From contig JBGSPL010000002.1 of NCBI GenBank assembly GCA_041738615.1, forward strand, positions 76,654-114,149: a stretch of 37,496 bases of DNA, written 5' to 3'. The stretch comes from Patescibacteria group bacterium. GTDB taxonomy: Bacteria; Patescibacteriota; CPR2; UBA1875; CAIMLA01. The notes beneath the pieces are model-generated. The model was not told the DNA's origin. It did not search any database and was given only the letters and a program-made list of their open reading frames with translations. Numbering within the stretch: the stretch's first letter is position 1; each line of letters starts with the position of its first letter. This document shows positions 9,717 through 32,923 of the stretch, one piece after another. Made by a program: the position numbers and the translations under genes.

Positions 9717-9786
9717 TGTAACGCTCCAATCTATGAGAAGTCTGCGGGGAGCGTCCCCTTCTAGCACCTTTTGGTACTCGACGTAT

Positions 9787-9815
9787 ATTCTAGCACAATA
9801 TGGCTTTTCTGTCAA
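9787..9815 (-). promoter_or_regulatory. near-consensus sigma-70 promoter
   Basis: On the minus strand: TTGACA (9815..9810), 17 nt, TAGAAT (9792..9787), with TGC just upstream of the -10. Located about 70 nt upstream of ATG 9716. Confidence 0.6.
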
Positions 9816-9837
9816 GTATATTTTTGAGGTAATTATA

Positions 9838-9866
9838 TTGATTAAATACAAAATCCATGTTAGGAT
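9838..9866 (+). promoter_or_regulatory. candidate divergent promoter for ORF 9913..10227
   Basis: TTGATT (9838-9843), 17 nt, TAGGAT (9861-9866). Confidence 0.35.
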
Positions 9867-9912
9867 TCGTGCACTGTACAGCAGTCTTCTTGTGATGAGA
9901 GGTGGGGTGTAG

Positions 9913-10227
9913 GTGTTTACCAACGAGGCGATAGTCAGGATTGACGGAGTCGGGACGAAAGTCGAAGCGGTCGGAGAGGGCTCGGGACTCAATGCTGCGA
10001 CGCTGAGTCACACGATAGCGCGTACGCATATCATGTCGCGCGTAGCGCGCCTCGGCGACGGTAACGACGTATTGCTCGGGTATTCTCGCAGCGGTGGCAC
10101 TACAGTTTTGCTTCATACGGAGCATGGGATTGTCGGCCCCTTTGCCGGCATTGCCTTTACACCTGACGGAATTACCGTCGTCGCCGAAGTGACCCATCGT
10201 GGGTCGCACAAGAAGAAGGCCAGCTAA
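9913..10227 (+). CDS. hypothetical GC-rich small protein (104 aa)
   Basis: GTG start with GAGGTGG about 8 nt upstream. First codon positions are G-rich and GC3 is about 64% by hand count. It ends in the 10215-10250 hairpin. The antisense ORF 9790..10209 shares the same triplet phase and is judged to be a shadow. No family recognised. Confidence 0.4.
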   Translation: MFTNEAIVRIDGVGTKVEAVGEGSGLNAATLSHTIARTHIMSRVARLGDGNDVLLGYSRSGGTTVLLHTEHGIVGPFAGIAFTPDGITVVAEVTHRGSHKKKAS

Positions 10228-10250
10228 CGCGTTTGCGATAGCTGGCCTTC
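10215..10250. terminator. 11-bp hairpin shared by convergent ORF 9913..10227 and trpS
   Basis: GAAGGCCAGCT (10215-10225) / AGCTGGCCTTC (10240-10250) with a 14-nt loop. T-rich tails are modest on both strands. Confidence 0.55.
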
Positions 10251-10261
10251 GTCGTTTTATA

Positions 10262-17063: not shown

Positions 17064-17807
17064 ATGAAGAAACGCATTGACCAGATGCTCGTGGATAACG
17101 GACTAGTAGAAAGTAAGAACAAAGCCCAAGCACTTGTGATGGCTGGTCAAGTTTTTGCGGATGGCCACATGGTGAGCAAATCCGGGACGAAGCTAGATGC
17201 AGAAGCTAACGTCTGTGTGAAGGAGCTTTTTCCGTATGTTTCACGTGGAGCATTGAAGTTAGAGAAGGCATTCATTGAGTTTAATCTCGACTTTAGAGGG
17301 AAAACTATCTGCGATATCGGCTCCTCGACAGGGGGCTTTACCGACTTCGCGCTGCAGAATGGTGCCGCGAAGTCTTTTTGCGTTGATGTCGGTACGGGGC
17401 AGCTCGCTCAGAAAATACGTGAAGACTCACGAGTCGTAGTAATGGAGAAGACAGACTTTAGGGACGTTTCTTTCCCCGAGCCTATCGACATCTTTGTCTG
17501 TGACGTCTCCTTTATTTCGTTGAAGCAGATTATCCCGAAAATAGCGGAACTAATTCGAAACTCGAAATTCGAAACTCGAAATTCAACAGAACTTGTTCTG
17601 TTAATTAAGCCTCAATTTGAAGCAGGAGTAAAAGAGGTTAGTAAGGGCAAGGGTGTAATCCGAGATGAAGCCTTGCGCCTCGAAATTGTGGAAGACATCA
17701 AAAAGTTTGCCGTTGCGAAGGGTTTCCAGGTGCTAGGTGTCACAACGTCCCCAATTACTGGTGCCAAGGGGAACGTAGAGTATCTACTGCATTTAGACTA
17801 TAATTAA
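17064..17807 (+). CDS. tlyA: TlyA-family rRNA 2'-O-methyltransferase (S4 + FtsJ domains)
   Basis: S4-like N-terminus (RIDQMLVDNGLVESKNKAQALVMAG), SAM motif DIGSSTGGFTD, DVSFISL, and KPQFEAG. Confidence 0.9.
   Translation: MKKRIDQMLVDNGLVESKNKAQALVMAGQVFADGHMVSKSGTKLDAEANVCVKELFPYVSRGALKLEKAFIEFNLDFRGKTICDIGSSTGGFTDFALQNGAAKSFCVDVGTGQLAQKIREDSRVVVMEKTDFRDVSFPEPIDIFVCDVSFISLKQIIPKIAELIRNSKFETRNSTELVLLIKPQFEAGVKEVSKGKGVIRDEALRLEIVEDIKKFAVAKGFQVLGVTTSPITGAKGNVEYLLHLDYN
17552..17586 (+). repeat. AATTCGA heptamer array (5 units) in-frame in tlyA
   Basis: AATTCGA AACTCGA AATTCGA AACTCGA AATTCAA, encoding IRNSKFETRNST. Confidence 0.75.
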
Positions 17808-17810
17808 CTC

Positions 17811-18506
17811 ATGATAAAAGTAAGTAATTTCTCGATTAAGTATAAGTCAACTGGTCAAACGACGGTCAAAAACCTCTCTTTTACAGTTTCCAAAGGTGAG
17901 GTGGTGGCTTTCATGGGGCCGAGCGGGTGCGGTAAAACAACGCTACTATCGTATTTGCAGGGTACCTTATCCCCCGAGGAGATTTCCACTCAGGGTACAG
18001 TGTCGGTAGACCCGAGCGTGAATATGATCCGAACAGTGTTCCAGGAACCTCGTCTGTTGCCATGGAAGACTTCTCTTGGCAATGTTGCTCTAGGGCTGGA
18101 ACTAGAGGGCGTGGAGGAGAAGGAGCTCGACAAGCGTGCCACAGAAGCACTTAAGCAGATTGGGCTTTCAAAATTCAGGACGACTTACCCCGGACAACTC
18201 TCTATGGGGATGAAGCAAAGAGTTAATTTTGCGAGAGCTATTGTCATGAAACCGCAATTGCTACTCCTGGACGAACCGTTTTCGGCCCTAGACGATGAAA
18301 CGAAAAGCCAGCTCCTAAAGCAGTTTGTCAGGGTTATTAAACGAAGTAATATCACAACCATCTTTGTAACTCATAATCTGGAAGAGGCGGAGCAAATTGC
18401 CGATCGGATAATAATGCTAAAACAAGACTTCGTGGGAGTACGTAATTTACGCGATGAGAGCAAGGTAGTAGCCAGCTTTGACTCTGCTATGGATTTGGAG
18501 AGTTAG
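17811..18506 (+). CDS. ABC transporter ATP-binding protein (NitT/TauT family-like)
   Basis: Walker A GPSGCGKTT, signature LSMGMKQR, Walker B LLLLDEPFSALD. The start is 3 nt after the tlyA stop. Confidence 0.9.
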   Translation: MIKVSNFSIKYKSTGQTTVKNLSFTVSKGEVVAFMGPSGCGKTTLLSYLQGTLSPEEISTQGTVSVDPSVNMIRTVFQEPRLLPWKTSLGNVALGLELEGVEEKELDKRATEALKQIGLSKFRTTYPGQLSMGMKQRVNFARAIVMKPQLLLLDEPFSALDDETKSQLLKQFVRVIKRSNITTIFVTHNLEEAEQIADRIIMLKQDFVGVRNLRDESKVVASFDSAMDLES

Positions 18507-19292
18507 GTGAGAAAGTTTGCTAAAGATAACTGGATCAGCGGATTAGCACTTTTGACCTTCCTGGTAGCTTGGGAGCTCTTCGCACTATTTAATGTTGTAG
18601 ACCAGTTGTACATAGGGGTGCCTCATCAGATATTTCTGTCGCTTTGGGTAACTATTTCTGAACCAGCCTTCTTGTCGCACCTCGGAAACTCTGGCAGGGC
18701 GTTCCTTATGGGATATTGTTTGGCGGTTTTGGGGGGAGCAGCACTGGGGTTCGCCACTAGTCTGAACAAAGTCGTGCGACAGGTGCTATCTCCGTTTATT
18801 TTAATCTTCAACTCGTTGCCGTTCGTCGCTATATTGCCGCTTTTGATAATCTGGTTTGGGATGGGAATTTTTGCAAAAACAGTGATGGTGTTTTTGATGG
18901 TTTTCCCATCGATTACGATACACGTGAGCGAAAGTATCCGGATGACCGACAAGGATATCAAAGTCATGTTTCAATCATTTGGCGCGAACAAGTGGCAGAC
19001 GGTTCGCAAATTGTATATATATCAGTCTCTTCCATACATTTTTTCTGGAGCTAGGATTGGGATCGGCAGAGGGCTGATAGCGATTATCGTAGCGGAAATT
19101 TATGGCTTGGGCAAAGGGATTGCATATTACATACCGTATTATGGTGCGACTTTCCAAACGGATAGGCTACTTGCAAGTGTCCTCGTCATTATATCTATTA
19201 ACTTTTTTTTGGTATACTTGCTTAATGTCATACGGCAAAGGGTGGTATTTTGGGGAGGGGAGACGGCAGTAATTAAGAGGGAGAGACCATGA
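18507..19292 (+). CDS. ABC transporter permease (SsuC/TauC-like)
   Basis: 6 TM helices and an EAA-like loop (SIRMTDKDIKVMFQSFGANKWQTVRKLYIYQSLPYIFSGARIG). The GTG start abuts the ATPase stop. Confidence 0.85.
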   Translation: MRKFAKDNWISGLALLTFLVAWELFALFNVVDQLYIGVPHQIFLSLWVTISEPAFLSHLGNSGRAFLMGYCLAVLGGAALGFATSLNKVVRQVLSPFILIFNSLPFVAILPLLIIWFGMGIFAKTVMVFLMVFPSITIHVSESIRMTDKDIKVMFQSFGANKWQTVRKLYIYQSLPYIFSGARIGIGRGLIAIIVAEIYGLGKGIAYYIPYYGATFQTDRLLASVLVIISINFFLVYLLNVIRQRVVFWGGETAVIKRERP

Positions 19293-20260
19293 ACAAGAAA
19301 ACATTACTCGGGATATTTTTGATAGTAGGAACCGTCGCATTGTTTGCGGCATACAACCAGGGCTTCTTTAAAAAGAAAGAAGTAGAGAAAAAGAATTTAG
19401 AACTCATCAAGGTTGGATTTCAAGCAGATGAGTATATGTTTGAAGCATTGGTAGATACGGCTACAGACAAAGGGTATTTTGCTGAAAACGGTATTAAGGT
19501 CGAAAAGGTTCAAAACACCAACAATCTCATAGCGGCATTGTCTTCCGGGGATTTGGACGTTAGCCTAGGCGCAAATACCGTGGCCTTGCTCAATTTCCTG
19601 AACAATCAAGACACAGTATTTATAGATAAACTTATCAATCGACCACCATTTACGGGAGTTATTACAAGGAAGGGTAACCGCTCTGAACTTAGCAAGGCGG
19701 CTGTGGCCAAACTTGCAGGGGCGGGTCAAATCTATACTGAGGTAGTGAAATCAAACCTCGGCACAGTTGAGGAAATTGATTACTCGGTGGCAGCTATCGG
19801 AGCTCCTCAGATTGCCGCTATCGAGTCGGGAGTAGCAGACTTTACCGTAACCAATGTGCTAAATGATGACACAAAAAAGGCAGTCAAGGGCAAGGATCTA
19901 GAAATCGTTAGCCCCGATGATACGTGGAAAAACAAAGAGCTTCCGATGGGTGTAATCTCAACCAAGAAATTAGTAGAATCAAAGAAATCTTCGGTCGGCG
20001 GTTTTGTGAAAGCCCTCAATAAAGCCCAAGAATATGCTCTAGGTCACAAGAAAGAAAGCGTCGACAGGATCAAAATAATTTCCAAGTATAGCGAGTCTTC
20101 ATCATCCGAAATCTTTGTTGCATATGCGAAGACAGTCTCGTCGAGTCATAAATTGGACGAAAACAGCTTGAAAGATGTTATGGAAGCGGTCAGGACTCTG
20201 AAACCCAAGAACGCTTCACGGAACTTGTCGGAGTATATCGACACTCAATTCGTCAAATAA
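19289..20260 (+). CDS. ABC substrate-binding protein (NMT1/SsuA-like) with N-terminal membrane anchor
   Basis: Signal anchor MNKKTLLGIFLIVGTVALFAA. KVGFQADEYMFEALVDTATDKGYFAENGIKVE is typical of NitT/TauT-type binding proteins. It overlaps the permease gene by 4 nt. Confidence 0.8.
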   Translation: MNKKTLLGIFLIVGTVALFAAYNQGFFKKKEVEKKNLELIKVGFQADEYMFEALVDTATDKGYFAENGIKVEKVQNTNNLIAALSSGDLDVSLGANTVALLNFLNNQDTVFIDKLINRPPFTGVITRKGNRSELSKAAVAKLAGAGQIYTEVVKSNLGTVEEIDYSVAAIGAPQIAAIESGVADFTVTNVLNDDTKKAVKGKDLEIVSPDDTWKNKELPMGVISTKKLVESKKSSVGGFVKALNKAQEYALGHKKESVDRIKIISKYSESSSSEIFVAYAKTVSSSHKLDENSLKDVMEAVRTLKPKNASRNLSEYIDTQFVK

Positions 20261-21524
20261 GGTGCGAAATTATATTCTTTGATTTCCCTAAGGTTGGTAG
20301 CTCAGTTACCAACCTTATTTTTAGCGGTTTAAAGATCCCGGCATCGACAAAGTCAGTGAGAGTTTTCTCGGAGCTCAGATAGAGATTATCCTGAATTACC
20401 TTGCTGACGATTCCAATGTCAGGCAGGTTCACTGGGTCTTTTACAATAAGCTCTAGGGTCAGCTCCGTATACAGCGTTCCCTTAGCGTTCACTTCATTTA
20501 CATTCATCCTGAAGTTCGATTCAAAGATATCTTCGACAACAGCAAGGGCATTGGCTATTGCTTGAGTATGCAGTAATCCACCCGAAATTCGCATTACGTC
20601 TAGGTCCGCCTTGCCTCGTAGATAAAGCAAGTGGTCTTGCCCACATTCACAATCGCAGTCCACCTTCTTGGCAATGTCACCTGTACGATATCGAATCAAG
20701 GGGAACGCCCTGTCCGTTAAGTGGGTATATATCATGTCACCGTAGCCATTAGCTTCCGATTTATCTTCCTGAAATTCAGTAAAGCACTCGCCGAGTAGGT
20801 GAAACACGTTCGGCGGGTCAGTGTATAAATGCTTACACCTGTAACCCACTACGCCTCCAATTTCCGAGGAACCGTAACTTATGCGCAGTGAAGCCGCCGG
20901 GTACATCTTTCGAAAGTAAGCTGCTTTCTGTTCGGTGCAGTACTCGGTACTGATGGTAATCTGTTTTATTTGACCCATATCGAAGCCGACTTCTACGAGT
21001 TTTTTTGTAAACAAATATAGTATTGTCGGAGTGGAAATGATGGCATCGGCACCGAGAGCCTGCGCGATATTTGCGCTCAGGTCGAGCTTCTGTGGATCTC
21101 CAGTCAGGTAGGGTACGCGCATCTTTGCAGCCTTGCCTACTGCCCTTACTAGAGGTAGCATAATTAGTACTTTTTTTGCCCCGTTTCTCTCGAGACAGTT
21201 GTATTCGGAATATTCAAAGTCAGGCGAATCTATAGTGGGAGTTACGAGTGGCCTATTATTACTAGTGGTTCCACTCGAAATTGTATAACCAGTGATCATA
21301 TCTTCTGGTACAAACATGCGCTGAGGCAGCGGTACCTTTAGCAAATCGTCCTTTGTAATTACGGGTATCTTTTGAAAATCTGCATAGCTATTTACAGTAT
21401 CTGCGGTGATATCTAGGCCCTTATATAGATCTTTATAGAAATCACAATACTCACTAGCAAGTACGTAGCTTAGGAGCTGTTTTATCGCAGGAAGATATTT
21501 ATGTTTAAATTTCTTTTCATCCAC
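20253..21524 (-). CDS. adenylate-forming enzyme, phenylacetate-CoA ligase / coenzyme F390 synthetase-like
   Basis: SSGTTSNNRP (AMP-binding P-loop), YGSSEIGG, RYRTGD, and the N-terminal FYKDLY...FQKIPVITKDDL typical of PaaK-like proteins. GTG start. It overlaps the convergent SBP gene by 8 nt. Confidence 0.8.
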   Translation of the reverse strand: MDEKKFKHKYLPAIKQLLSYVLASEYCDFYKDLYKGLDITADTVNSYADFQKIPVITKDDLLKVPLPQRMFVPEDMITGYTISSGTTSNNRPLVTPTIDSPDFEYSEYNCLERNGAKKVLIMLPLVRAVGKAAKMRVPYLTGDPQKLDLSANIAQALGADAIISTPTILYLFTKKLVEVGFDMGQIKQITISTEYCTEQKAAYFRKMYPAASLRISYGSSEIGGVVGYRCKHLYTDPPNVFHLLGECFTEFQEDKSEANGYGDMIYTHLTDRAFPLIRYRTGDIAKKVDCDCECGQDHLLYLRGKADLDVMRISGGLLHTQAIANALAVVEDIFESNFRMNVNEVNAKGTLYTELTLELIVKDPVNLPDIGIVSKVIQDNLYLSSEKTLTDFVDAGIFKPLKIRLVTELPTLGKSKNIISHLI

Positions 21525-21530
21525 TGTACC

Positions 21531-21538
21531 AGTATAAT
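21531..21538. promoter_or_regulatory. overlapping back-to-back -10 boxes for two divergent genes 14 bp apart
   Basis: Plus strand: TATAAT 21533-21538, abutting ATG 21539 and 6 nt before in-frame GTG 21545. Minus strand: TATACT 21536..21531, 6 nt before GTG 21524. Confidence 0.35.
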
Positions 21539-23176
21539 ATGAAAGTGAATAAAAAACACTCAGTCCTATTGCTGCTTTTTGCGCTTGGCATATTACTTGT
21601 TTGCTCTCCCTTGATATATGAACAATATCTATCCTTAGGGGTTCGCGGAAAAACTATAGAACACATAAGTCTGGGCTCAGAGAAATACTTTGTGCGGGAT
21701 GGCAAGGTGCTGGCCGAGAACCAGGACCACGAAGCGTCATACGGCGTAAGGCTGCAGATACTGAGGATGGCGAACACCTATCAGTCATTGGTTAGTGACC
21801 CACTGCTTACTGATGGGAATTTGCATTCAGATACAAACGAGAAATATCTGGACGAGCTGGAGACGGCACAGGCCGAGCTACTAAAAGCCTCAGGACAAGA
21901 TATCCAGGTAGTCCCCGTAGGGTTTCTAAAAGGGTTGTTGTCTCTTTCTCAGAGTAGAAAGGCCCTAGACACTGGTATCAGCGCTGGGTCCCTTGCCAAA
22001 TACTTGGACCAGGTTCAAGAAGTGGTAGGTCAGTATCGTCAATCAGCCACGGACTTACTGAAGAAACAAGAGTCATTGGGTTCGGAGTTTTCTACCAGTA
22101 ATATCTTTACTTCCACAAACACGAGCATCGTCAAAAACGACCTAAAGTTACTAATAGATAACGCCAAGTCTTTAGAGTCAGAGATAGAGCATAGAAGGCT
22201 GATTCTGTCAGGGGTTGTTCCGTATCTGGATTTCGACAAGAAAGTAACACAGGTAGAGAATATCGATACACATATGTTGGGACCAGAGCTCGATAAGGCA
22301 GATTTACCTTCTGGGTCAACAGTCACTCGGATTTCTTCAAAACAATTTGTGACTAAAACGGGCTGTTTCGACGGGGAAAATAGCGAGAAAGCGTTCCTTC
22401 TATATTCGTATTTTCATAGCTCTAGGCAAGCTCTGTTACCGAAGCTTGCAAATACTAATATATTTCAAAAAGTATCTGCAGATAAGGTCTTTACCCTGCA
22501 GAGGGACAGGGGCCTTCTGTGGAGCCAGTTGCGAGAGGGCAATAACTACCGTTGCATGGACAACTCGTATCAGGTAGATATTCTGAATACCTATACCTAC
22601 CTGAAGAGATTTGACCAGCCTGTTTTGGCTAGTATCTACAGAGAGATAGACCACAAGAAATTGTCTAAAGCCGAAAAAGGCTCTTTTGAAAGTGCTATCA
22701 ACGCCGAAGCTCGTTTTTATAGTAATGACAGTATCTATTACGACGATCTAGTTAGGTTATCCAACAATTACCAATACGTTGCCACAACCTTACAGGGGAA
22801 CGGTAATAACAGCGATTTTACCAGGATCCTAAACGAAAGGTCTCGCCATATCGACAATCGAGAGTCAGGACTCGAAATGCTTTTTGCAACGGTTTTCAAT
22901 CTGGATTCCATGTTAAAGTACGCAGACAAGGAGAAACTGGCTACCCCTACAAGCTTAAAATATTTGTATTTCACGAGGGTAGACTACTCGATATCGTACT
23001 TTACCTTTTCTCCACTCGTTTGGAGGCACAAGTCCTCTCCTACCTACCAGCTCCCGACCGCGAAGAACGAACATTACAAGTATTACGACGATCTAGTTAA
23101 AGTGCTAGGAGTTGTAAAAGTCCGTGAGATTGAATCTATATCACGGACAGATGAGATGGAGTACTTGGGACTTTAG
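21539..23176 (+). CDS. hypothetical secreted/membrane-anchored protein (545 aa)
   Basis: N-terminal hydrophobic segment HSVLLLLFALGILLVCSPLIY. It is a long uninterrupted ORF with ordinary codon usage. No family recognised. Confidence 0.7.
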   Translation: MKVNKKHSVLLLLFALGILLVCSPLIYEQYLSLGVRGKTIEHISLGSEKYFVRDGKVLAENQDHEASYGVRLQILRMANTYQSLVSDPLLTDGNLHSDTNEKYLDELETAQAELLKASGQDIQVVPVGFLKGLLSLSQSRKALDTGISAGSLAKYLDQVQEVVGQYRQSATDLLKKQESLGSEFSTSNIFTSTNTSIVKNDLKLLIDNAKSLESEIEHRRLILSGVVPYLDFDKKVTQVENIDTHMLGPELDKADLPSGSTVTRISSKQFVTKTGCFDGENSEKAFLLYSYFHSSRQALLPKLANTNIFQKVSADKVFTLQRDRGLLWSQLREGNNYRCMDNSYQVDILNTYTYLKRFDQPVLASIYREIDHKKLSKAEKGSFESAINAEARFYSNDSIYYDDLVRLSNNYQYVATTLQGNGNNSDFTRILNERSRHIDNRESGLEMLFATVFNLDSMLKYADKEKLATPTSLKYLYFTRVDYSISYFTFSPLVWRHKSSPTYQLPTAKNEHYKYYDDLVKVLGVVKVREIESISRTDEMEYLGL

Positions 23177-23418
23177 AAAAAGCCGTTACAGCCGATAAAC
23201 AGGCATTCGGTGTTTCCCTGCGCGACCTTGTCTAGCTTCGAGCAATCCGTTTTTCCGGCATAATCCTGTTTTTGCAAATGAAACTCTAGCCCCCCGGCTC
23301 GGGAGAGTGTGATTCTTTTTGTAGCAAATAGATAAGCACCTGTGAGTACGATGCTAAATATCAGCAGGGCCATGACTGCTACTAGGTATTTCTGCTTATT
23401 TTTTGGAATTTTCATCAA
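23173..23418 (-). CDS. hypothetical small membrane protein (81 aa)
   Basis: Basic N-terminus, TM helix YLVAVMALLIFSIVLTGAYLF, and a C-terminal part with three Cys. It overlaps the convergent gene's stop by 4 nt. Confidence 0.45.
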   Translation of the reverse strand: MMKIPKNKQKYLVAVMALLIFSIVLTGAYLFATKRITLSRAGGLEFHLQKQDYAGKTDCSKLDKVAQGNTECLFIGCNGFF

Positions 23419-23464
23419 CTTAATTATCTAGCCAGGGCAATCAGTTGTCAAGTTGCTAAAGTGT

Positions 23465-23493
23465 TTGCACTACACTAGTAAACAATATAAAAT
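23465..23493 (+). promoter_or_regulatory. candidate promoter of the giant surface-protein locus
   Basis: TTGCAC (23465-23470), 17 nt, TAAAAT (23488-23493). Confidence 0.5.
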
Positions 23494-23515: not shown

Positions 23516-24079
23516 ATGAAGCGAAGACGCGCTAATTTCGATTTTTTGCGAAAGAGCGTTACGAACAGGCTGACTCCAAGCGGTCCTTTTAGTGTACGCA
23601 GATTCCGTATGAAACTGGAAAAAGACCTCCGTGAAACCTATATCTACAGGGCATATCGTACTGGCTTGCGTTCGCCATATTCGGTTAGGAGACCACAGAT
23701 AAAGATCTGGCACTCTGTGAAAGATGCTAAGAGGACTTGGAAGCGGCTGCACTCATTGCTGCTGGAGCTTTTCTACGCTCCCCACATCGCGGTACGCTAC
23801 CTGCACGACCACCTGTACCACAAGTCCAGGGGCTATAAAAAGTATCATGATAGACCGTCAACAGAGACAGTACACAGAGCTGCCCTAGCTGGATTCTTGG
23901 CTTCGTTCTTGATCTTCAACGTTTTGCAATACTCCTTGCCGAGTTTCTTCGACCTATTCAAGCCCAAGGCAGCCTATGCCGACACCAACTCTGTTTCCTG
24001 GGACACAAAAGGCGAGTTCTCTACGGGGCAGACACCAAACGTCGACAACAATGGCCAAGTAGTGGTGTCTGGTACTTAG
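23516..24079 (+). CDS. membrane-anchor segment (basic cytoplasmic tail + TM) in frame with the giant ORF, ended by a single TAG
   Basis: ATG 23516 is preceded by GAGGG. The product has a ~130-aa Arg/Lys/His/Tyr-rich tail, the TM helix AALAGFLASFLIFNVLQY, then ADTNSVSWDTKGEFSTGQ... It is in the same frame as 24104..32923. Confidence 0.6.
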   Translation: MKRRRANFDFLRKSVTNRLTPSGPFSVRRFRMKLEKDLRETYIYRAYRTGLRSPYSVRRPQIKIWHSVKDAKRTWKRLHSLLLELFYAPHIAVRYLHDHLYHKSRGYKKYHDRPSTETVHRAALAGFLASFLIFNVLQYSLPSFFDLFKPKAAYADTNSVSWDTKGEFSTGQTPNVDNNGQVVVSGT

Positions 24080-24103
24080 GCTGCCGATAATGCCACAGTA
24101 TCG

Positions 24104-27100
24104 TTGAAAAGCACCAGCGACATTGGCACAGGATTGGATGGAGAGCTTATAGTCGATGGTACAAATGCTAGCCAAACTAAGGTGATAAGGCCAAATAACA
24201 CGGTGATAACGCTCGGATGCGGTCCGACGCGGGCCTCTACGATATGTAATGCATCTACTCCGTTGTATTTAAATACTGCTATCGCACCGATAGACGGCAA
24301 TACACATAGGATATACAACTTTACCAAGGTGACTATCAAAAACAACGGGGTGCTCACCCACAGTGATGGTGCAGGACTTAACGATACGATTTATGAGGGT
24401 ATAAATATACTCGCCACTACACAGGTAGATATCCAGGCCGGCTCCAGTATTGACGTAACAGGCCGTGGTACCAAGACGACAGCAGCAGCTGGTGGTAGTG
24501 GTGGTTGCTACGGAACCGTTGGAGGATTTGGTGGCCAAGTAGTGAGCTTCCCCTATACTAGGACTCAATGCACGACTTACGGAAGCAGTACAGATGTGGG
24601 CTATATGGGTTCAAAGGGAGCGAACTCCACGTTATCTGAAATACTGGGTGGCAATGGCGGCGGACGCGTCCAGATATCGACAGACGCGCTTCTAGTAAAT
24701 GGGAGTATTCAGGCAAACGGGACAGGTGGAAGGCATATCAACCCCGGTTATGCTGCGAATAGCATTGCAGCAGGTGGTGGTTCTGGTGGGGGTATAGTTT
24801 TGGGGGCCAGGGTGGCTACCATTACTGGCTATGTCAGTGCAGCTGGTGGTGGAGGTGGTGGAACTGGTCTGAGTTATAGCACCGGCATCCAAGGATCACC
24901 TGGCTATAATGGCGTAGGTGGTTCTGGCGGTTGGTGGAACGCTGCTTATAACTCTATACCAGGAGGTTTGCCTGGTACGGCTGGGTCTGGTGCTGATGGT
25001 GGTAGCTCAGGTTTAGCCTACGGGACCTATCCAGGCGAGGCAGCGGGTAGTGGCGGTGTTTATAACCCAACGGTTAATAATACAGGGGGCGGCGGTGGTG
25101 GCGCGGGCAGAATCAAGGCTACTATAGGGACTATAAACGGAAGCTATCCAACCCATTATGTCTACGATGGCAATCTATCCGCTTCAACAGGATGGGTCGT
25201 AGAGGCAAGCACTCCCGGGACCCTGGATAGTAATCTCGTAACTAGCTCGACCGTGGGGGCAACCTATAACTACACCTTTACGAACTCGACAGCTGTTGTC
25301 CTGATGGCTTCGAAGATTCAGAACTACGGTACCGCTGAGGTGTGGGTAGATAGTGGTGCCAAGACGGTTATCAATGAGGATGCAGGACCAGACGTCTGGA
25401 TACCTTGCAACATGATATCGGGTTCGTGTGAGGCCGGTACTGGTGTTTGGGCAACCCCTAGGTCCGACCAAGTGAATATGTTTAGCCAAAGCGGTCTAGA
25501 CCCTACCTCTAGCCATACTATATATGTGAAAGTTCTGAGTGGAAAGATCGATATAGACTCCTTTACTACGGCCAACATATTACCAGCTTACTCATATAAT
25601 GCAGATATACCGGCAAATGTAGGTCCATACGGCTACTATTCTAAAATTGGTTTCCTTACCCCTGGGGTACTAGGCGGGACAAACTCGGCAAGTCTGAAGA
25701 TCGGACTTCGTAAGAATTTGGGCAAAAAGGTAAATTGGAAACAGATACAACTCACGGGCAGTAGCGTGATTCCAGCGGGAACGACCGTGAAGGTTATGGG
25801 GCGGTTCGCAGACACCTATGGATCTAACGGATTTATGGCGCCCGACACTAAAGTGTTGGATAGCTATTCAGCACCGATAAACAGCTCAACCCTCACTTTG
25901 AATATGGGATCGGATATATACTCGAGCACTATAGAGCTCTATTTGGAGCTGTCTAGTCCTGCGGGTATAGCTACGCCAATAGTGGACGGCATTACAGCGA
26001 GCTACGACGCTCTGGAACCGCCGACTAACGTAAATACAACTTTACAGAAAAATAATAACTCATACCTGAAGAAAATAGACGGGACCATCATAGATACCCC
26101 TAGCGGCACGCCGGCTGCTGGGCACGCACTTTACGGTACTGCTGGGGGCACTACAAATGAAACAACGCTCAAGGTTACGGCCAGCGGACTTACTTGTGCT
26201 GGTTGTACCGGGACAACCACAGGGAGACACTTGGAAGTTCAATACAAAGCTGTCGGTACTGCATTCGACTCGCCGACTGCGGATGAAACTACCAACCTTT
26301 TCGACGGTTCGCCCGGAGATATTGCCAGTGTAACATCGACGGCAACGCTTACGGGCTTGTCGGCGGGTACCTCCTATCAGCTCCGAACGCGAGCCTCCGA
26401 CGGTAGTGGCAGGGCGAGTGCTTGGACATACTATGGTTCGGGCACCAACAGTGCGAATGAAGCTGACTTTACAGTTGATCAATCGGCACCAGTGCTCGGA
26501 ACTTTTACTGTCAAAGGCAACATCGGTGGAAGTCCCAGCTTCGTCAATGCTACCGAGGACGCCAGTCTAGCGAAGGTCGAGGTACAACTTCGAGACAACA
26601 TCTCCACTAACGTGGATGTCCAGTTTTCCGAGGACGGGGTGAATGGCTGGGGAGCTTACTATGCAACCAATGGCAGTAATAACCTCGATAACAATTGGGG
26701 CGCCAATAGCTACATCACAGTCAGCGAAGTCACAAATACGCTTTCTTTGAAGACGTTGTCTGCCGCGTGGAAGTTTACGACTGACGGGGCAAAGCAACTT
26801 TACATCCGAGTTAGAGACAACGCAGGGAATATTATTACCAGTGGAGGCTCAAATAATGTCACCTTGGATTCGGTCTTTCCTACCGGTACTGTAACGATAA
26901 ACACAGGTGCTGCGAGAACAAACGATAAGAATGTCAATCTGATCCTAAACCCTAGCGAGCAAACCGCAACGGCGACAGTTTCCGGGATCAAGGAATTCCA
27001 GCTCTCCAATGATGGATCCAATTGGGGTACCGCATACAATCCGACCACAGGTGCTTACAGCGGCGCGTGGCAAGCATGGCTACCGAGCCATGCCAGCAGT

Positions 27101-30100
27101 GGATACACATGGAGTCTGGTAAAGGGAGCCTCGGATACAGGGACGGATGGGGCTAGGACAGTTTATGTCAAATATCGAGACAATGCAGGTAATATCAATA
27201 CTGCGAGTCCTTTACCAAACACAGTTACAGTTGGCGGCCAGACTTGGCAGGATCGTAACTTAAATAGCGGTACAATGGTACCTGGCGGCACCGCACAGAG
27301 TGTCGGACAGAAGTGGTGCTATGACGACTCAGAGTCTAATTGTACGACTTACGGCGCACTGTATCAGTGGAATACAGCGATGGCTGGCAGCACCACAGAG
27401 GGTGCGCAAGGTGCTTGTCCGGTAAACTTCCATGTGCCGAGTGATAGCGAGTACAAAACTCTTGAGATGAATCTAGGGATGTCGCAAGCACAAGCCGATG
27501 CCTCGGGATGGCGAGGTACAGACGAGGGGACCAAAATTAAAACAGGCGGTACTAGCGGATTCGAGGCATTGCTGGGAGGTTACGCTTACCCATTCTCTGG
27601 CAGCACGGCATATACATATTTCTGGACTAGTACCCAAGCCAGTGCCAACTTTGCTTGGTATAGACAGTATGTAAACACACTACCTAACTCAATCCGTGAC
27701 AACTCAAGCAAGCTCTCTGGGTACTCTCTACGTTGTATTCAAAACTCGGGGTTCTACAATTCGGCTATCAGTGCAAGCACGACCCTAGATACTACCGCGC
27801 CAGCAATAAGTGTTGCGCATTTAGAGTCTAGCAACTCATCTGTCTCGAAGGCAAAACCAGGTGATGTAATCACCTTGACTATGGTTGCTTCTGAAGCGGT
27901 TACTACACCATCGGTTACTATTGCCGGGCATGCGGCGGCCGTTACGGGAAGTACCCCAAACTTTACCGCTACGTATACTATGCAGCAAGCTGATGCCAAC
28001 GGTACTATCGCCTTTAATATATCAAGCTTTGCAGACCTAGCTGGTAATGCTGGTGTGACTCGGACTACGACTACAGATAGTTCGGCAGTTGCTTTTGACA
28101 AAGACACTCCCACAGCCCCAACATTCGACTTTGTAGAGGGTCTTTATACCAATAGCCCGCTTGGGCAGGCCACGCTGAGGATGTCTCTCGCGGACACTGG
28201 CGGCTCGGACCTCGTTAGCTATCAGCTAGCCACAGAGGATACAACATCTGGTTGGCAAGCGGCGAGTGTAAATGTGATTTCTGGATCTGCCTATACGGAC
28301 AATTCGATTGTTTGGGACCTATCGCCTACCGAGGGGGTCAATGATGCCTACGCTAGGATTATAGATGGAGCAGGTAACGTCTCGGTAGTACATACTAGTA
28401 TTACTTACGATGTCACGAACCCAGGTAATCCAACGGCTATTACCGCCCAGAAGTCGATCTCTGATGCTACCGTAGTAAACCAGTCTACTTGGTATCCACA
28501 TACCGCACCGAAGTTTAGCTGGTCGGCGACTGACGGGACACTTGGTTCCGGAGTCAAGGGCTACTGGGTATACCTAGGTCCGCTATCTAGTGGCGTCCCT
28601 GTAAAAACCGTTTCACCCGACGCAAATTATTTCTTCCTCCCTATCCAACCACAAGATAACGGGAATGCTATTTTGAATATCAATCTTAGCGCTGGAGGAT
28701 ATCCAGAGGGGAAACTTTACCTAAAGACAAAAACCGAGGATAACGTCGGCCTACTATCAAGCGGCATGAATAGCTTTACCTACTATTATGACAAAACCGT
28801 CCCATCTGTAGTCTCTGGACTTACAGCAAGTAAAGATGTTCTAAACAAGATTCACGTTTCCTGGAACGCCTCCACACAGCTTTCTTCAGAATCGCCACTT
28901 GATGAGTATCAGATAGAACGAGTAAAGGCACAATACACAATCGGTAATGACACGTTTGCGCCTCAGCTTACAGATATAGATTGGTATAACTCCGATGCCA
29001 GTAGCGGTTACGCTGTTTTCGACTTCTACCGTGCGGACCCAGTATTTACTGCCCATGGTTTCGACGACGACAAAGACAACCCGATACAAGGCCAGACAGC
29101 ACTCCAAACGGGCGTCCGTTACACATACCGGGTGCGAGCAAAGGATATCTCCAATGCTGGATTTGGGGAATGGCAGAACAGTGGCTATGTGTTTGGGTTG
29201 ACCAGGGACACCATGAAGCCAGAGGTCATCCCTAGCGGACTTACCGTTGGCGTCTGCGACACTGGCCATCTCGAAATATGCTCAAATAACACTTCGCCGG
29301 CTTTTGGCCACGAGATCAAGGTCACCTGGCTGGGTGGCTCTGACATCGGTTCCTTCATGAAGGGTTATAAAATATATAGGAACAAGGTAGGCTCGGCTGA
29401 GAACTGGGAGGTAGTCGGATTTGTTGATGTATCGGGGGGCGGTGCCCCTGCTCTCGAGTGGTACGACAACGATGCGAATAATGCAGATACATTTACTACC
29501 TTCAAACCGCAGGCTTCAAGCAACGTGAATGATTATACGATTTACGAATATAGGGTTACCGGAGTGGATAACTCACTGGATTACAACGAGAATTTCCTTG
29601 GAAACGAGGTAGACACTTATACCGAAGAGAATTACAAGAGAGCAAGTGAGCGTACACCAGACGTAACAAATCCTCCGATGCCAACCGCGTTGTCTGGGGC
29701 AGCTCTCGGCCTAGATGATTCTGACCCAGAGGCTTACACAGCCCTATCTAACGGAACGGGACAGGCTACTCTTGCAGGGGTAGATTACTTGGTTGATAGC
29801 GCGAAGAGCTGGACCCCAGACTCATTGGTAGGTTTCCAGGTAAGAATTATCAGTGGAACCGGAAGCGATGGCGCGCTGAAAAACATAGCTTCAAACACTA
29901 GCAATAGAATCAATCTAACCGATTCGTGGGATACCGAACCAGACGGCAGTTCGGCATACGAGATATATGCTGGCCACCAATGGGTAAAAGTTCGTTGGCT
30001 GCAAAATAACGATACCAATCTATATGGTGGTAGCGGTAGCGGGATCGTCGATATTCGTCTCTTTAGGTCGGAAACTCTTGGGGGTACCTATGTAGACGTG

Positions 30101-32923
30101 ACTGACAGTACGGATTTGCCCGTAGAATGTTCTCTGAATACCTGGGAGTGTACTCAGAAACGCTTACCAGATCTTACTGACTTCTATTACAAAGTATTTG
30201 TTACAGACGCAGTGGGTAATTTATCACCACTATCCACTAGTGTTGGAGAGGTCACTACGGCTAGATCATCTGCGCCAACTCTTCCTCAAGATGTGCAGAT
30301 TAGCCATACAGCAGGTGAGCCTACAGATGCAAACAAGATTGGCCATAAGTTGCACGTAAGCTTCACTGGTAGTTACGCAAAAGACTGTCAGATTGGTAAT
30401 AACAAATACTGTCTCGAGGCTTACGAAGTATATCGATCGACTACAAATTATAGTACCGATATGGATTGGCTGGACCAGGCAAAAACTACACGTTTGCCAG
30501 ACATTACTTTGGCTGCTGGGACCAAAGAGGAACGCGGCTACCCACGGTCGTTCGATGATGAAGGACAGACCTACCTAAACCCAACAACCAAGCCAGGTCT
30601 CTCTGATGCAACGCGTTACTATTATAAGGTACGAGCTAGAGACAATACCCCCGTTGAAGACGTTGTTCCTGGCCCCTTCTATTCGGCACTTTCTGAAGTT
30701 GACGAAGTGAGCCCAACGGGATTACACAAGGGCTGGGATATCACTCCAGATGCAACTAAGCCAGTGCTTAAGTCAACAAACCCAGTGACCCACGACGTCA
30801 CCCAGGGGCTCGGTGTAAAGGTGCGGGATACACATCCAAACCGAACGCAGCTAAGGAACATCGTTTCTTGGCTTGTTGTTGACCAGTCAGGCCGAAAAAA
30901 GTTGCCATATGAAACCTGTAATTCTTTCGTGGAATCGGGCACAACCTATTGTAGTGACTTTGCAAAATATGAGATATGGAGACAAAAACTAGATAATAAT
31001 ACGGTTCTAGAGAATGTGTTAGTGGGAACGACAACAGACATCCAGACCAATTTCTTTACAGACTATCTGGCTACTGATTTACAATTTAACAAATACAACT
31101 ATTATGTTGTTGTTGTAGATAATTCCGATACTCTCTTCAAGTACCCAGCACCATACAATACCCTGATCAATACCGACGCAAATCGTAGTCAGAAGGCAGT
31201 TTGTCCCGATTCAATCATCCCAGGGAAGGCTACACCAACAATTGTGGGTAATGTTACACTCTCGAACATTGGTGTGGCTAGTGCCACAGTAACTTGGAGT
31301 ACAGACCAGGATACCGATGCCGTAGTAGAGTTCCGAGAAAAGTATTTACGTACATCGGATGGCAAGGTAGACACCGCTAATCTTAATTCAACAGGAGCTT
31401 TCTCGGTGATTGGTGCCAACACCCAGCCTGGTGAGTCTTCTAACGTTCAGGGTCATACAGTTAACCTATTTGGGTTACAACCGCTCACGCCTTATGAGTA
31501 CCGAGTAGTTTCCAAGAACTATCTTGCAAATCCAGTATCAAAGGGAGGTTCCAACGTTCCAGAGCTTACCACCAAAGGCTTTACGATTACCTATAACCCA
31601 AGTCCAGAGGATATATCGACGGTTTCTGCAGAGATCCACTGGACTACCAACATGCCCTCCAACTCGAATATGATTGAATTCCGTGAGAGCAATGGCACGC
31701 AGACCGGGGCTGTTGCTGAGACTCCGATGAGCACCCAGGCTGTCGCAGAAGACGCTAAAAATTGTGACACCAATCCTGGTTCCAAGCTCTGCACCCACTC
31801 TGCGTCTATAGAACCGTTAAAGAAAGCCACTGAGTATACGATAAACATTATTTCTGTGTCCCTGGACAACTTTACGGCAAATTCAGGACTCCAGAAATTC
31901 ACGACTGCAAACTCTGACTCGAAGCAGTTTACCATCGCACCGTCAGCATCTAACGTTGCGGAGCGAAACATTACCTCTACCTCAGCTCAGATTATCTTCC
32001 AGACTTCTGAGCCCACTTCGGCGACACTCTACTATGACACCAAGACAGGTGCCCCGAACTTTGATCCAAAGGATTATAGACAGACGGCAACAGACGCGAT
32101 GAAGAGTACCACTCATGCCATCCTTGTAGATGGGCTCGAGCCGGGCAAGAAGTACTTCTACATCGTGAAGGTGGACAACGGACTCCTAAGCTACACCTCT
32201 CCAGAGGCCACCTTTACGGCCGTCCTAAAACCGAAGATTTCTAACCTCAAGGTAGCAGACGTGAAGCCATACTCGTTTAGGCTGACCTGGGATACAAATA
32301 TCGACACAGAAACGCTCATTAATCTCGGGACGAGTGCTACATATGGCGAAAAACGTGGTAAACCAGGGCTGATGAAGGCCCACGACCTCTTAGTGGAGGG
32401 TCTGCTAGACAACACAGAGTATCACTATCAGATTCTTGCAAAGGACGAGACCGGCGAGGAGGTCGCTAGTGGCGACTCTGCAGTGCGAACCCCTATGGAC
32501 ACCGAGGGTCCAAAGATATCGGCCGTGAAAGTAGACGTATTGCCTATGGGTGAAAACGATACCACTTCTTCGATCATTGTTACCTGGCAGACCGATAAGC
32601 CATCTACTACCCTAGTTGAGTATGACCAGGGCCTCATCGGCGGCGACTATAATAACCGTTCTACAGAGGATGCTACGCTAAACAATTCGCATACGGTTAT
32701 TATCAAAAACCTGGCCCCAGCATCTTCGTATCACTACAGGTTGGTATCCAAAGACAAGAGAAACAATGTCACAACTTCACAGGACTACACATTCGTAACT
32801 CCTTCGAAGGAAAAATCTATCCTGCAGATGATTCTGAAATCCCTAGAGGAAACCTTCGCCTGGACCAAGAATTTGAACCAATTCTTTGCCACTATCGGCA
32901 AGCGCCTTACGGGGAAAAGCTAG
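24104..32923 (+). CDS. giant cell-surface adhesin-like protein (2939 aa in track)
   Basis: Uninterrupted 8.8-kb ORF. It has a Gly-rich beta-helix-like head, many Ig/FN3-like modules (recurrent ...Y.R.RDNAGN...), a FISUMP module and five FN3/PAP-N-like repeats. It has no start/RBS, signal peptide or C-terminal anchor of its own. Confidence 0.9.
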   Translation: MKSTSDIGTGLDGELIVDGTNASQTKVIRPNNTVITLGCGPTRASTICNASTPLYLNTAIAPIDGNTHRIYNFTKVTIKNNGVLTHSDGAGLNDTIYEGINILATTQVDIQAGSSIDVTGRGTKTTAAAGGSGGCYGTVGGFGGQVVSFPYTRTQCTTYGSSTDVGYMGSKGANSTLSEILGGNGGGRVQISTDALLVNGSIQANGTGGRHINPGYAANSIAAGGGSGGGIVLGARVATITGYVSAAGGGGGGTGLSYSTGIQGSPGYNGVGGSGGWWNAAYNSIPGGLPGTAGSGADGGSSGLAYGTYPGEAAGSGGVYNPTVNNTGGGGGGAGRIKATIGTINGSYPTHYVYDGNLSASTGWVVEASTPGTLDSNLVTSSTVGATYNYTFTNSTAVVLMASKIQNYGTAEVWVDSGAKTVINEDAGPDVWIPCNMISGSCEAGTGVWATPRSDQVNMFSQSGLDPTSSHTIYVKVLSGKIDIDSFTTANILPAYSYNADIPANVGPYGYYSKIGFLTPGVLGGTNSASLKIGLRKNLGKKVNWKQIQLTGSSVIPAGTTVKVMGRFADTYGSNGFMAPDTKVLDSYSAPINSSTLTLNMGSDIYSSTIELYLELSSPAGIATPIVDGITASYDALEPPTNVNTTLQKNNNSYLKKIDGTIIDTPSGTPAAGHALYGTAGGTTNETTLKVTASGLTCAGCTGTTTGRHLEVQYKAVGTAFDSPTADETTNLFDGSPGDIASVTSTATLTGLSAGTSYQLRTRASDGSGRASAWTYYGSGTNSANEADFTVDQSAPVLGTFTVKGNIGGSPSFVNATEDASLAKVEVQLRDNISTNVDVQFSEDGVNGWGAYYATNGSNNLDNNWGANSYITVSEVTNTLSLKTLSAAWKFTTDGAKQLYIRVRDNAGNIITSGGSNNVTLDSVFPTGTVTINTGAARTNDKNVNLILNPSEQTATATVSGIKEFQLSNDGSNWGTAYNPTTGAYSGAWQAWLPSHASSGYTWSLVKGASDTGTDGARTVYVKYRDNAGNINTASPLPNTVTVGGQTWQDRNLNSGTMVPGGTAQSVGQKWCYDDSESNCTTYGALYQWNTAMAGSTTEGAQGACPVNFHVPSDSEYKTLEMNLGMSQAQADASGWRGTDEGTKIKTGGTSGFEALLGGYAYPFSGSTAYTYFWTSTQASANFAWYRQYVNTLPNSIRDNSSKLSGYSLRCIQNSGFYNSAISASTTLDTTAPAISVAHLESSNSSVSKAKPGDVITLTMVASEAVTTPSVTIAGHAAAVTGSTPNFTATYTMQQADANGTIAFNISSFADLAGNAGVTRTTTTDSSAVAFDKDTPTAPTFDFVEGLYTNSPLGQATLRMSLADTGGSDLVSYQLATEDTTSGWQAASVNVISGSAYTDNSIVWDLSPTEGVNDAYARIIDGAGNVSVVHTSITYDVTNPGNPTAITAQKSISDATVVNQSTWYPHTAPKFSWSATDGTLGSGVKGYWVYLGPLSSGVPVKTVSPDANYFFLPIQPQDNGNAILNINLSAGGYPEGKLYLKTKTEDNVGLLSSGMNSFTYYYDKTVPSVVSGLTASKDVLNKIHVSWNASTQLSSESPLDEYQIERVKAQYTIGNDTFAPQLTDIDWYNSDASSGYAVFDFYRADPVFTAHGFDDDKDNPIQGQTALQTGVRYTYRVRAKDISNAGFGEWQNSGYVFGLTRDTMKPEVIPSGLTVGVCDTGHLEICSNNTSPAFGHEIKVTWLGGSDIGSFMKGYKIYRNKVGSAENWEVVGFVDVSGGGAPALEWYDNDANNADTFTTFKPQASSNVNDYTIYEYRVTGVDNSLDYNENFLGNEVDTYTEENYKRASERTPDVTNPPMPTALSGAALGLDDSDPEAYTALSNGTGQATLAGVDYLVDSAKSWTPDSLVGFQVRIISGTGSDGALKNIASNTSNRINLTDSWDTEPDGSSAYEIYAGHQWVKVRWLQNNDTNLYGGSGSGIVDIRLFRSETLGGTYVDVTDSTDLPVECSLNTWECTQKRLPDLTDFYYKVFVTDAVGNLSPLSTSVGEVTTARSSAPTLPQDVQISHTAGEPTDANKIGHKLHVSFTGSYAKDCQIGNNKYCLEAYEVYRSTTNYSTDMDWLDQAKTTRLPDITLAAGTKEERGYPRSFDDEGQTYLNPTTKPGLSDATRYYYKVRARDNTPVEDVVPGPFYSALSEVDEVSPTGLHKGWDITPDATKPVLKSTNPVTHDVTQGLGVKVRDTHPNRTQLRNIVSWLVVDQSGRKKLPYETCNSFVESGTTYCSDFAKYEIWRQKLDNNTVLENVLVGTTTDIQTNFFTDYLATDLQFNKYNYYVVVVDNSDTLFKYPAPYNTLINTDANRSQKAVCPDSIIPGKATPTIVGNVTLSNIGVASATVTWSTDQDTDAVVEFREKYLRTSDGKVDTANLNSTGAFSVIGANTQPGESSNVQGHTVNLFGLQPLTPYEYRVVSKNYLANPVSKGGSNVPELTTKGFTITYNPSPEDISTVSAEIHWTTNMPSNSNMIEFRESNGTQTGAVAETPMSTQAVAEDAKNCDTNPGSKLCTHSASIEPLKKATEYTINIISVSLDNFTANSGLQKFTTANSDSKQFTIAPSASNVAERNITSTSAQIIFQTSEPTSATLYYDTKTGAPNFDPKDYRQTATDAMKSTTHAILVDGLEPGKKYFYIVKVDNGLLSYTSPEATFTAVLKPKISNLKVADVKPYSFRLTWDTNIDTETLINLGTSATYGEKRGKPGLMKAHDLLVEGLLDNTEYHYQILAKDETGEEVASGDSAVRTPMDTEGPKISAVKVDVLPMGENDTTSSIIVTWQTDKPSTTLVEYDQGLIGGDYNNRSTEDATLNNSHTVIIKNLAPASSYHYRLVSKDKRNNVTTSQDYTFVTPSKEKSILQMILKSLEETFAWTKNLNQFFATIGKRLTGKS
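24365..25140 (+). other. glycine-rich beta-helix-like region of the giant protein (approximate bounds)
   Basis: Periodic G-runs alternate with short hydrophobic strands: AAAGGSGGCYG, LGGNGGGRVQISTDALLVNGSIQANGTGG, AAGGGSGGGIVLGA, AAGGGGGGTG, TGGGGGGAGRIKA. Confidence 0.6.
27221..27745 (+). other. Fibrobacter succinogenes major paralogous (FISUMP) domain embedded in the giant protein
   Basis: GGQTWQDRNLN...QKWCYDDSESNCTTYGALYQWNTAM...CPVNFHVPSDSEYKTLE...GTSGFEALLGGY...YFWTST...SGYSLRCIQN matches the remembered family pattern (W..eNL, C.YG.LY.W..A, CP.GWh.PS..Ew..L, SGF.al..G, fWsst, S.RC). Confidence 0.75.
31220..32803 (+). other. five tandem FN3 / purple-acid-phosphatase-N-like modules at the C-terminus (approximate bounds)
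   Basis: Each ~100-aa unit has ...A.V.W.T...s...veY... then H.v.l.gL.p.t.Y.Y.v. Examples: ATVTWSTDQDTDAVVEF...YEYRVVS, and IIVTWQTDKPSTTLVEY...YHYRLVS. Confidence 0.65.

Follow-up and report, generated by a model that had tools for sequence, protein, structure and literature searches.

At one locus of a Patescibacteria group bacterium, two open reading frames (ORFs) lie in the same frame with one TAG codon between them, which raises the question of whether they are two genes or a single gene for a giant surface protein that the stop has cut in two. The locus was examined in a stretch of 37,496 nucleotides (assembly GCA_041738615.1, contig JBGSPL010000002.1, positions 76,654 to 114,149 of the forward strand), referred to here as the window, and all coordinates given for it are positions within that stretch. 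We found strong support for one ancestral gene, 23516-32923, whose sequence would encode a secreted or surface protein of ~3,135 aa. Most likely, the locus is an ordinary nonsense-interrupted gene that has been annotated as two, not a special coding mechanism.

A single reading frame interrupted by one TAG

The upstream ORF runs from ATG 23516 (alternative start GTG 23507) to 24079 and the downstream ORF from TTG 24104 to 32923, and both share one frame. The sole stop between them is the TAG at 24077-24079, after which the frame is open again from 24080 to 32923, with zero further stops or frameshifts over the 8.8 kb of 24080..32920. The protein sequence across the stop reads ...NNGQVVVSGT-(stop)-AADNATVSLKSTSDIG..., and the fused gene amounts to ~3,135 codons, with a 187-codon leader part and a 2,947-codon body on either side of the TAG (codon 188):

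23516..24076, forward strand: 5' part of the gene, codons 1-187, with the entire N-terminal leader module and ~32 residues from the start of the putative mature protein
24077..24079, forward strand: premature in-frame TAG, codon 188, a position held by sense residues in eight homologues
24080..32920, forward strand: 3' part of the gene, codons 189-3135, a leaderless ectodomain with no transmembrane (TM) segment and no ATG or Shine-Dalgarno motif near its 5' end

A shared frame with a lone stop is not significant by itself, and the same geometry was also found among the unrelated adjacent genes 17064-17807, 17811-18506, and 18507-19292. The observation rises above chance level here because homology crosses the stop.

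The in-frame start candidates past the TAG are TTG 24104, TTG 24134, GTG 24182, and so on. No Shine-Dalgarno-like motif was found within 20 nt of these candidates, and the earliest in-frame ATG past the TAG is codon 364, at position 24605. A GAGG motif stands at −7 from ATG 23516. The start of the upstream ORF differs between public records, with 187 aa (ATG 23516) in Logan vs. 156 aa (ATG 23609) in NCBI; family homology, which starts at residue 1, and the GAGG motif favour ATG 23516. An earlier note on this DNA, made from the sequence alone, had described two ORFs in one frame with one TAG between them, a large ORF lacking an ATG start and a Shine-Dalgarno motif, and an upstream ORF carrying the ribosome-binding site, and all of this, coordinates included, was confirmed in the sequence. 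The promoter that it had also placed upstream fared less well. A match exists, but the region has three promoter-like sites of that grade where chance alone would give 2.1; the site is no better than chance and is suggestive only:

23464..23493, forward strand: weak match to a sigma-70-like promoter, TTTGCA-18-TAAAAT, ahead of the gene, 9/12 positions

Homology across the stop

With fused residues 1-322 as the query, a full HMMER search found 75 relatives among 1.84 billion representative proteins, many of them single ORFs of 2,000-4,300 aa. The N-terminal 150-280 residues of many relatives aligned over query residues ~77-320, straight past the position of the TAG. Query residues 77-318 aligned on residues 33-275 of P0005 (2,572 aa), residues 88-320 on 44-264 of P0007 (3,306 aa), and residues 79-318 on P0004 (E = 1.7e-42); P0010 (2,555 aa) was also a single ORF aligned over the junction. 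For P0011 (3,219 aa), the alignment began at residue 1 (query 1-207 on 1-204), and the alignments of P0036 and P0009 likewise started at query residue 1. The BLASTP alignment with P0001 (740 aa) was unbroken over query residues 132-438, from the hydrophobic helix through the stop. A word-indexed protein search with the fused N-terminus gave two distant matches only, the Gly-rich region having dominated its output.

Eight homologues aligned around the junction form one conserved block, with an invariant W and F before the TAG and an invariant L and DG..L..DG after it, while the TAG column itself held the sense residues G, D, V, S, T, and E. By full-length BLASTP, the fused protein was collinear end to end with P0007, P0015, P0036, P0011, P0005, and P0009 (~2,500-3,300 aa). 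In the closest relative, P0007, collinearity extended from the N-terminal module to the last residue, with 60.6% identity over query residues 2153-3134. The N-terminal module (aa 77-168) lies wholly upstream of the TAG and the C-terminal tail downstream, and the two ends of the family thereby fall on opposite sides of the stop. The proposal of one gene of ~3,136 codons broken by an amber codon was borne out by the homology across the TAG, the collinearity, and this division; the two ORFs have a single-gene ancestry, and the stop stands inside the gene.

The stop position in other family members

Family loci were found in GTDB species representatives and JGI metagenomes with a hand-made degenerate DNA pattern for H...R..HD..Y.....YK...[DE]. 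The GTDB scan gave 16 true family loci and four chance matches in other phyla. All of the GTDB family loci were in metagenome-assembled genomes (MAGs) of the Patescibacteria, or Candidate Phyla Radiation (CPR), assigned to Howlettbacteria, Saccharibacteria, and 'Patescibacteria group'; MAGs ELA653, STE_72, and JTS-AC356 and a Howlettbacteria MAG carried two to three loci each. The JGI metagenome scan added ~24 further true family loci. The module was continuous with a long ORF at every GTDB locus (16/16; up to >2,500 aa inside the fetched DNA), and at the ~24 JGI loci it was continuous with a long ORF or the ORF ran off the contig end. A stop at the TAG position was found in 0/16 GTDB loci and 0/~24 metagenome loci. 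Comparison with these ~40 other loci showed no family member split in two, in keeping with the single-gene proposal.

Members of the family share a layout of a ~150-aa leader, a variable beta-rich/adhesin-like middle, a ~1,000-aa Ig-like array, and an invariant tail. The consensus of the N-terminal module is ..RLxxxELxYxxHLxxRxxHDxxYxKxxxYKKxxDxxYSxxVHxAxxxAFxxSFxxFxxxQxxxPxxFNxxxPxxAxAGxNSxTWTTxxDF. The window copy has the motif, the helix with the AxA site and TWTTxxDF, and the C-terminal block with the tail, and it lacks the uninterrupted ORF joining leader and body; it is a disrupted family member. Neither the N-terminal module nor the tail matched a model in Pfam-A or NCBIfam. The family is apparently uncurated and Patescibacteria-specific, and the window protein may act in surface attachment.

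Some loci depart from the long-ORF pattern. A small subfamily is complete at ~340-390 aa. At locus L040 (contig Ga0265292_1007001, 3395-5525), a ~980-bp unit occurs three times in tandem, from 3395, 4374, and 5351; each unit opens with a truncated cytoplasmic N-module ending ...TDKxYS, without a TM helix, in ORFs of 67-80 aa, followed by ORFs of 94-133 aa. This is a different kind of lesion from the TAG in the window and may reflect the duplication of a 5' gene fragment or an array of cassettes. Short representative matches (67-143 aa) were considered as a sign of recurrent splitting, which was rejected, as such calls in the DNA loci run off contig ends; the short proteins among the matches are best explained as contig-end fragments.

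TAG as a terminator and signals of recoding

TAG ends ~10 of the 31 likely genes in the window, including those at 318, 18504, 32921, and 33491, while TAA and TGA end others. This gene itself finishes, after its conserved C-terminus, with the TAG at 32921-32923, at the very point at which P0009 and P0010 end. TAG acts as an ordinary terminator in the window. The earlier note had argued from well-supported TAG-terminated genes that global reassignment was unlikely; that argument stood, and with ~10/31 genes ending in TAG, global reassignment was rejected.

Pyrrolysine insertion or a recoding element was likewise rejected, on the evidence of the 37.5-kb window. The fold of 24060-24180 revealed no stable RNA structure past the TAG (z = 0.32; 121/200 shuffles fold at least as well), and an Rfam scan of the window returned only a tRNA-Ser(GGA) at 8129-8217, with nothing at the TAG site. 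No suppressor (CUA) tRNA was found in the 37.5-kb window, where the only tRNA is Ser-GGA. Phase variation by simple sequence repeats or by inversion was also rejected, as no repeat tract, homopolymer, or invertible segment was found at the TAG; there was no tandem repeat within 750 bp of it, and only chance-level repeats of 17-20 nt were present.

The stop in two assemblies

The TAG is present in two assemblies, the 114,149-bp NCBI contig and a 28,363-bp Logan contig from SRR28170474, and both encode split proteins. Comparison of 20.5 kb of the Logan contig with the window gave 0 mismatches. The NCBI record calls the two parts as proteins of 156 aa and 2,939 aa. No close relative or allele of the fused 837-aa N-terminus was found in genome contigs or metagenome contigs. 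The 90% protein clusters hold the window's own proteins only (the 2,939-aa cluster has one member), and the highest N-terminal identity to any relative is 44%.

Interpretation of the stop

We consider it rather probable that the TAG is a true nonsense allele and that all or most of the sampled population carries it. A single base substitution would have produced the TAG at codon 188, in the linker right after the leader. Possible ancestral codons are CAG, AAG, GAG, TTG, TCG, TGG, and TAY, and a hydrophilic residue would fit the linker. Because TAG is a normal terminator here, translation would halt at codon 188, leaving a leader stub of 187 aa. With neither a start nor an export signal of its own, the 2,947-codon body would not be made in useful amounts, and the untranslated message would probably be subject to polarity. 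The copy, which encodes one among several paralogous giant surface proteins, would thereby be switched off, whether as a pseudogene of very recent origin or as a strain-level null allele. The gene has what a nonsense null is expected to have, namely intact homologues, a premature stop, and a downstream part without its own initiation or export signal. The lesion would be very recent because the 8.8 kb downstream carry no second lesion, which by rough reasoning would be expected after only ~0.1-0.2% neutral divergence.

Several points weigh against this reading. The stop is known from assemblies alone, which leaves room for a consensus error or a minority/majority polymorphism, and the two assemblies may share reads and hence are not independent confirmation. 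The intact 8.8-kb frame is equally expected if the full-length protein is still made and selected. There is no close orthologue (best N-terminal identity 44%; nothing else in the 90% cluster) from which to read the ancestral codon or the ratio of nonsynonymous to synonymous substitution rates (dN/dS). The suppressor-tRNA search spanned only 37 kb of the genome.

It is unlikely, though a chance to be reckoned with, that the TAG is a sequencing or consensus artefact, in which case the organism would have a sense codon (e.g., GAG, CAG, AAG, or TCG) and an intact gene. A base-call error, a polishing error, or a minor variant picked at a low-coverage position could each introduce such a TAG. The gene has no other flaw over its 9.4 kb, one substitution suffices to create the stop, the contig is metagenome-assembled, and the sequence is in no other sample for a cross-check, all of which would suit an error. 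Weighing the other way, the base is identical from two assembly pipelines (NCBI and Logan), consensus-level substitution errors are generally rare in short-read assemblies, and, leaving aside the overlapping ORFs at 9366-10260, no second case of interruption was noticed in the ~31 likely window genes. We infer that the cells themselves carry the TAG and that it did not arise as an error in the consensus. A real TAG could also be a functional leaky stop, at which partial readthrough by near-cognate decoding or a suppressor tRNA would yield a low, possibly regulated amount of full-length protein, the stop being kept to throttle expression or to switch the gene ON and OFF at the population level. 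All 2,947 downstream codons lie in an intact frame, the linker is variable and apparently unstructured and could tolerate any inserted residue, and giant surface proteins of epibiotic CPR bacteria, for which a host-attachment role has been proposed (PMC8080830), are plausible targets of variable expression. We nonetheless hold a leaky stop to be improbable, given that the stop is conserved in 0/~40 relatives, that the site has no stable downstream RNA structure, repeat tract, or invertible segment, that TAG is a heavily used true terminator, in this gene included, and that the sole tRNA of the window is Ser-GGA. That the amber is maintained and functional, with a costly ~3,100-aa host-attachment protein kept low, or ON only in a sub-population, via readthrough or frequent TAG-to-sense reversion, appears very improbable.

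If these were two separate functional genes, one would encode a membrane protein of 187 aa and the other a protein of 2,939 aa started at TTG 24104, for example by termination-reinitiation, with the larger product acting in the cytoplasm or leaving by another route. This would match the public annotation. Gene callers yield exactly this split, and TTG 24104 lies just 25 nt past the stop, where reinitiation is mechanistically possible on general grounds. No family member is so organised, however, and the stop cuts the conserved block W..DF / V.L / DGEL.VDG. The large ORF lacks a Shine-Dalgarno motif, an ATG, and a signal peptide, and its FISUMP, fn3, and purple-acid-phosphatase-N-type (PAP-N-type) Ig-like domains are generally of the extracytoplasmic type. 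We give the two-gene explanation hardly any credence. The earlier note had left a sequencing error, a nonsense mutation, an ON/OFF polymorphism, and readthrough open as causes. That range is now narrowed, with the stop in 0/~40 relatives and no readthrough or phase-variation signal, and the recent nonsense allele is the cause that we favour.

Leader, domains, and tail of the protein

The features of the fused protein are as follows:

23783..23851, forward strand: conserved cytoplasmic motif H-x3-R-x2-HD-x2-Y-x5-YK-x3-D, here HIAVRYLHDHLYHKSRGYKKYHD (aa 90-112), within the basic N-region
23870..23953, forward strand: sole TM/signal-peptide hydrophobic helix by Kyte-Doolittle analysis, VHRAALAGFLASFLIFNVLQYSLPSFFD (aa 119-146)
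23972..24019, forward strand: AxA-type site, AYA followed by D (aa 153-156), then SWDTKGEF (aa 161-168); consensus A-x-A-G-x-N-S-x-TWTTxxDF
24137..25195, forward strand: first folded domain, beta-rich and Gly-rich, beginning DGELIVDGT and common to P0001, P0002, and several family members
27224..27742, forward strand: FISUMP/Fib_succ_major domain (PF09603, E = 4.6e-27; TIGR02145, E = 1.6e-24)
31244..32809, forward strand: C-terminal fn3/purple-acid-phosphatase-N-type Ig-like array (PF16656, E = 4.2e-32, three stretches; PF00041, E = 1.7e-18)
32810..32923, forward strand: nearly invariant C-terminal tail EKSILQMILKSLEETFAWTKNLNQFFATIGKRLTGKS, the last 37 residues, then the natural TAG 32921-32923

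The H, R, HD, and Y of the cytoplasmic motif are invariant in a 48-sequence family alignment and are present in the window copy, and the degenerate DNA pattern of the motif has one match in the window, at 23783. The N-region (aa 1-121) has 31 lysines and arginines vs. nine aspartates and glutamates. The top 19-residue Kyte-Doolittle window begins at aa 119 (mean 1.65), and the next highest in the 3,135 residues reaches 1.31. In the helix, the family keeps F, S, F, and P; the W and F of the TWTTxxDF motif are invariant, and the A-x-A consensus is family-wide. The AxA region is the putative signal-peptidase cleavage region and would mark the start of the mature protein. To judge from these residues, the N-terminal part looks like a long conserved export leader that may be cleaved rather than anchoring.

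The first folded domain carries the invariant residues DG..L..DG, GP, N, and F..T..N..H. An AlphaFold2 model built from nine sequences was of medium quality (mean predicted local distance difference test (pLDDT) score 64.7, junction region <50), and several 10-residue blocks in the beta-rich parts of this domain had a pLDDT of ~75-95. The TAG falls in a variable low-pLDDT linker, ~20 residues ahead of the first confidently folded domain. Foldseek gave no significant PDB match to the first folded domain (best E = 1.1), and a sequence search of the PDB gave none. The Pfam domains in the body are Fib_succ_major, fn3, and Pur_ac_phosph_N, and the Ig-like array belongs to a ~1,000-aa block that is the most conserved part of the family. 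The tail has the family consensus EKSILQLILKSLEETFAWTxNLNQFFxxIGKRLTGK, beginning EKSILQLILKSLEETFAWT; 24 full-length homologues finish with an identical or near-identical tail at the equal position, and P0009 and P0010 end ...KRLTGKS.

These features agree with the earlier description of an upstream ORF that supplies a basic tail and the only TM helix, and of a large ORF without a signal peptide, as no segment of TM strength lies downstream of the TAG. Two of its points needed qualification. The TM helix described as a membrane anchor is present, but it is followed by an AxA site and the leader may be cleaved. The C-terminus, said to lack an anchor, indeed has no TM helix, but it does carry a conserved amphipathic tail.

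Genomic neighbourhood

The neighbours of the giant gene include core genes, namely those for RpoD, DnaG, a class-I Trp/Tyr-type tRNA synthetase (PF00579), phosphoglucomutase, S6-SSB-S18, EF-P, and YchF. RpoD relatives at 92-95% identity were found on long metagenomic contigs, and the named RpoD matches, at 77-80% identity, were 'Patescibacteria group bacterium' and 'candidate division WS5'. One 848-kb contig, Ga0209512_1000004, carries both an RpoD relative at 94% identity and the intact 2,526-aa homologue P0015. Synteny with the 92-95% RpoD relatives covers only PGM-TrpRS-GPI-DnaG-RpoD, with the 10-kb flank stopping short of the giant gene.

Directly upstream of the giant gene, at 20253-23418, lie two divergent orphan genes of 423 aa (reverse strand) and 545 aa (forward strand). 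No homologue of the 545-aa protein was found among 5.8 billion protein clusters. Since this flanking gene is an orphan, the giant gene lies in a variable region, and the orphan suggests a hypervariable island upstream of it. The reverse strand also has an uncalled ORF at 23173-23418, 81 aa long with a single TM helix (MKIPKNKQKYLVAVMALLIFSIVLTGAYLF...), which shares 4 nt with the end of the oppositely oriented 545-aa gene. The region's best promoter match, TTGACA-17-GATAAT (11/12), lies ahead of this ORF at 23451-23423.

Other observations concern the rest of the window. At 9366-10260, overlapping ORFs occur on both strands (208 and 139 aa on the reverse strand; 94, 113, and 104 aa on the forward strand) with no Pfam match, and they include a second same-frame ORF pair with a TAG at 9910 between them; small hypothetical ORFs occupy the syntenic spot in the relative L052. 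The neighbour of rpoD at 1086-2018 (reverse strand) encodes 310 aa and includes an ice-binding-like domain (PF11999, E = 5e-45), and the relative GCA_964511435.1 has polA in its place. The genes at 13702, 17811, and 21539 (forward strand) and at 21524 (reverse strand) start 5-8 nt past a TATAAT-like box without a Shine-Dalgarno motif, while others use AAGGAG; the former may have leaderless mRNAs.

Comparison with known systems

In Vampirococcus lugosii, giant membrane/surface proteins of 1,392-4,163 aa have been proposed to act in host recognition and attachment (PMC8080830). The window protein resembles these in its Patescibacteria lineage and ~3,000-aa size class, a likeness by description. 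With CPR giant surface proteins in general, it shares a single N-terminal hydrophobic segment, Ig-like/fn3 and adhesin-type arrays, and the occurrence of several paralogues per genome. Its family is set apart from them by the specific leader and the invariant tail, and this copy by its interruption. Giant genes of uncultivated bacteria have reportedly been surveyed in a 2023 preprint.

The leader resembles ESPR of autotransporters and YSIRK-G/S and KxYKxGKxW of Gram-positive adhesins in having a charged extension before a hydrophobic core and an AxA-type site, a resemblance of architecture only. Unlike in those signal peptides, the extension in the window protein is far longer (~120 aa) and carries the motif H..R..HD..Y..K...YKK..D. 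No Pfam or NCBIfam signal-peptide model matched the leader in the window.

Like programmed UAG recoding (pyrrolysine, a suppressor tRNA, or phage/bacterial reassignment), the locus has an in-frame UAG inside an intact long ORF. It differs in that TAG is a frequent terminator here, the case is a single occurrence and is not conserved, and the window holds no recoding signal or suppressor tRNA. The closer likeness is to ordinary nonsense pseudogenes of bacterial surface-protein genes, which also have one early stop, no restart, intact relatives, and the loss of one paralogue. Unlike those, the window gene is without any secondary decay, and its lesion, seen in two assemblies, is only probably real.

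Biological meaning

In public records the locus appears as two unrelated entries, each a 'hypothetical protein' (156/187 aa and 2,939 aa), but it should be treated as one interrupted gene; counting the parts separately distorts the protein-family and secretome statistics of a poorly known phylum. If the stop is real, it would record the very recent loss of one giant surface-protein paralogue in a CPR bacterium, and giant surface-protein genes are expected to turn over fast under host or phage pressure. The family itself, with its distinctive leader and invariant tail and its position outside Pfam-A and NCBIfam, may make a better lead than the stop itself.

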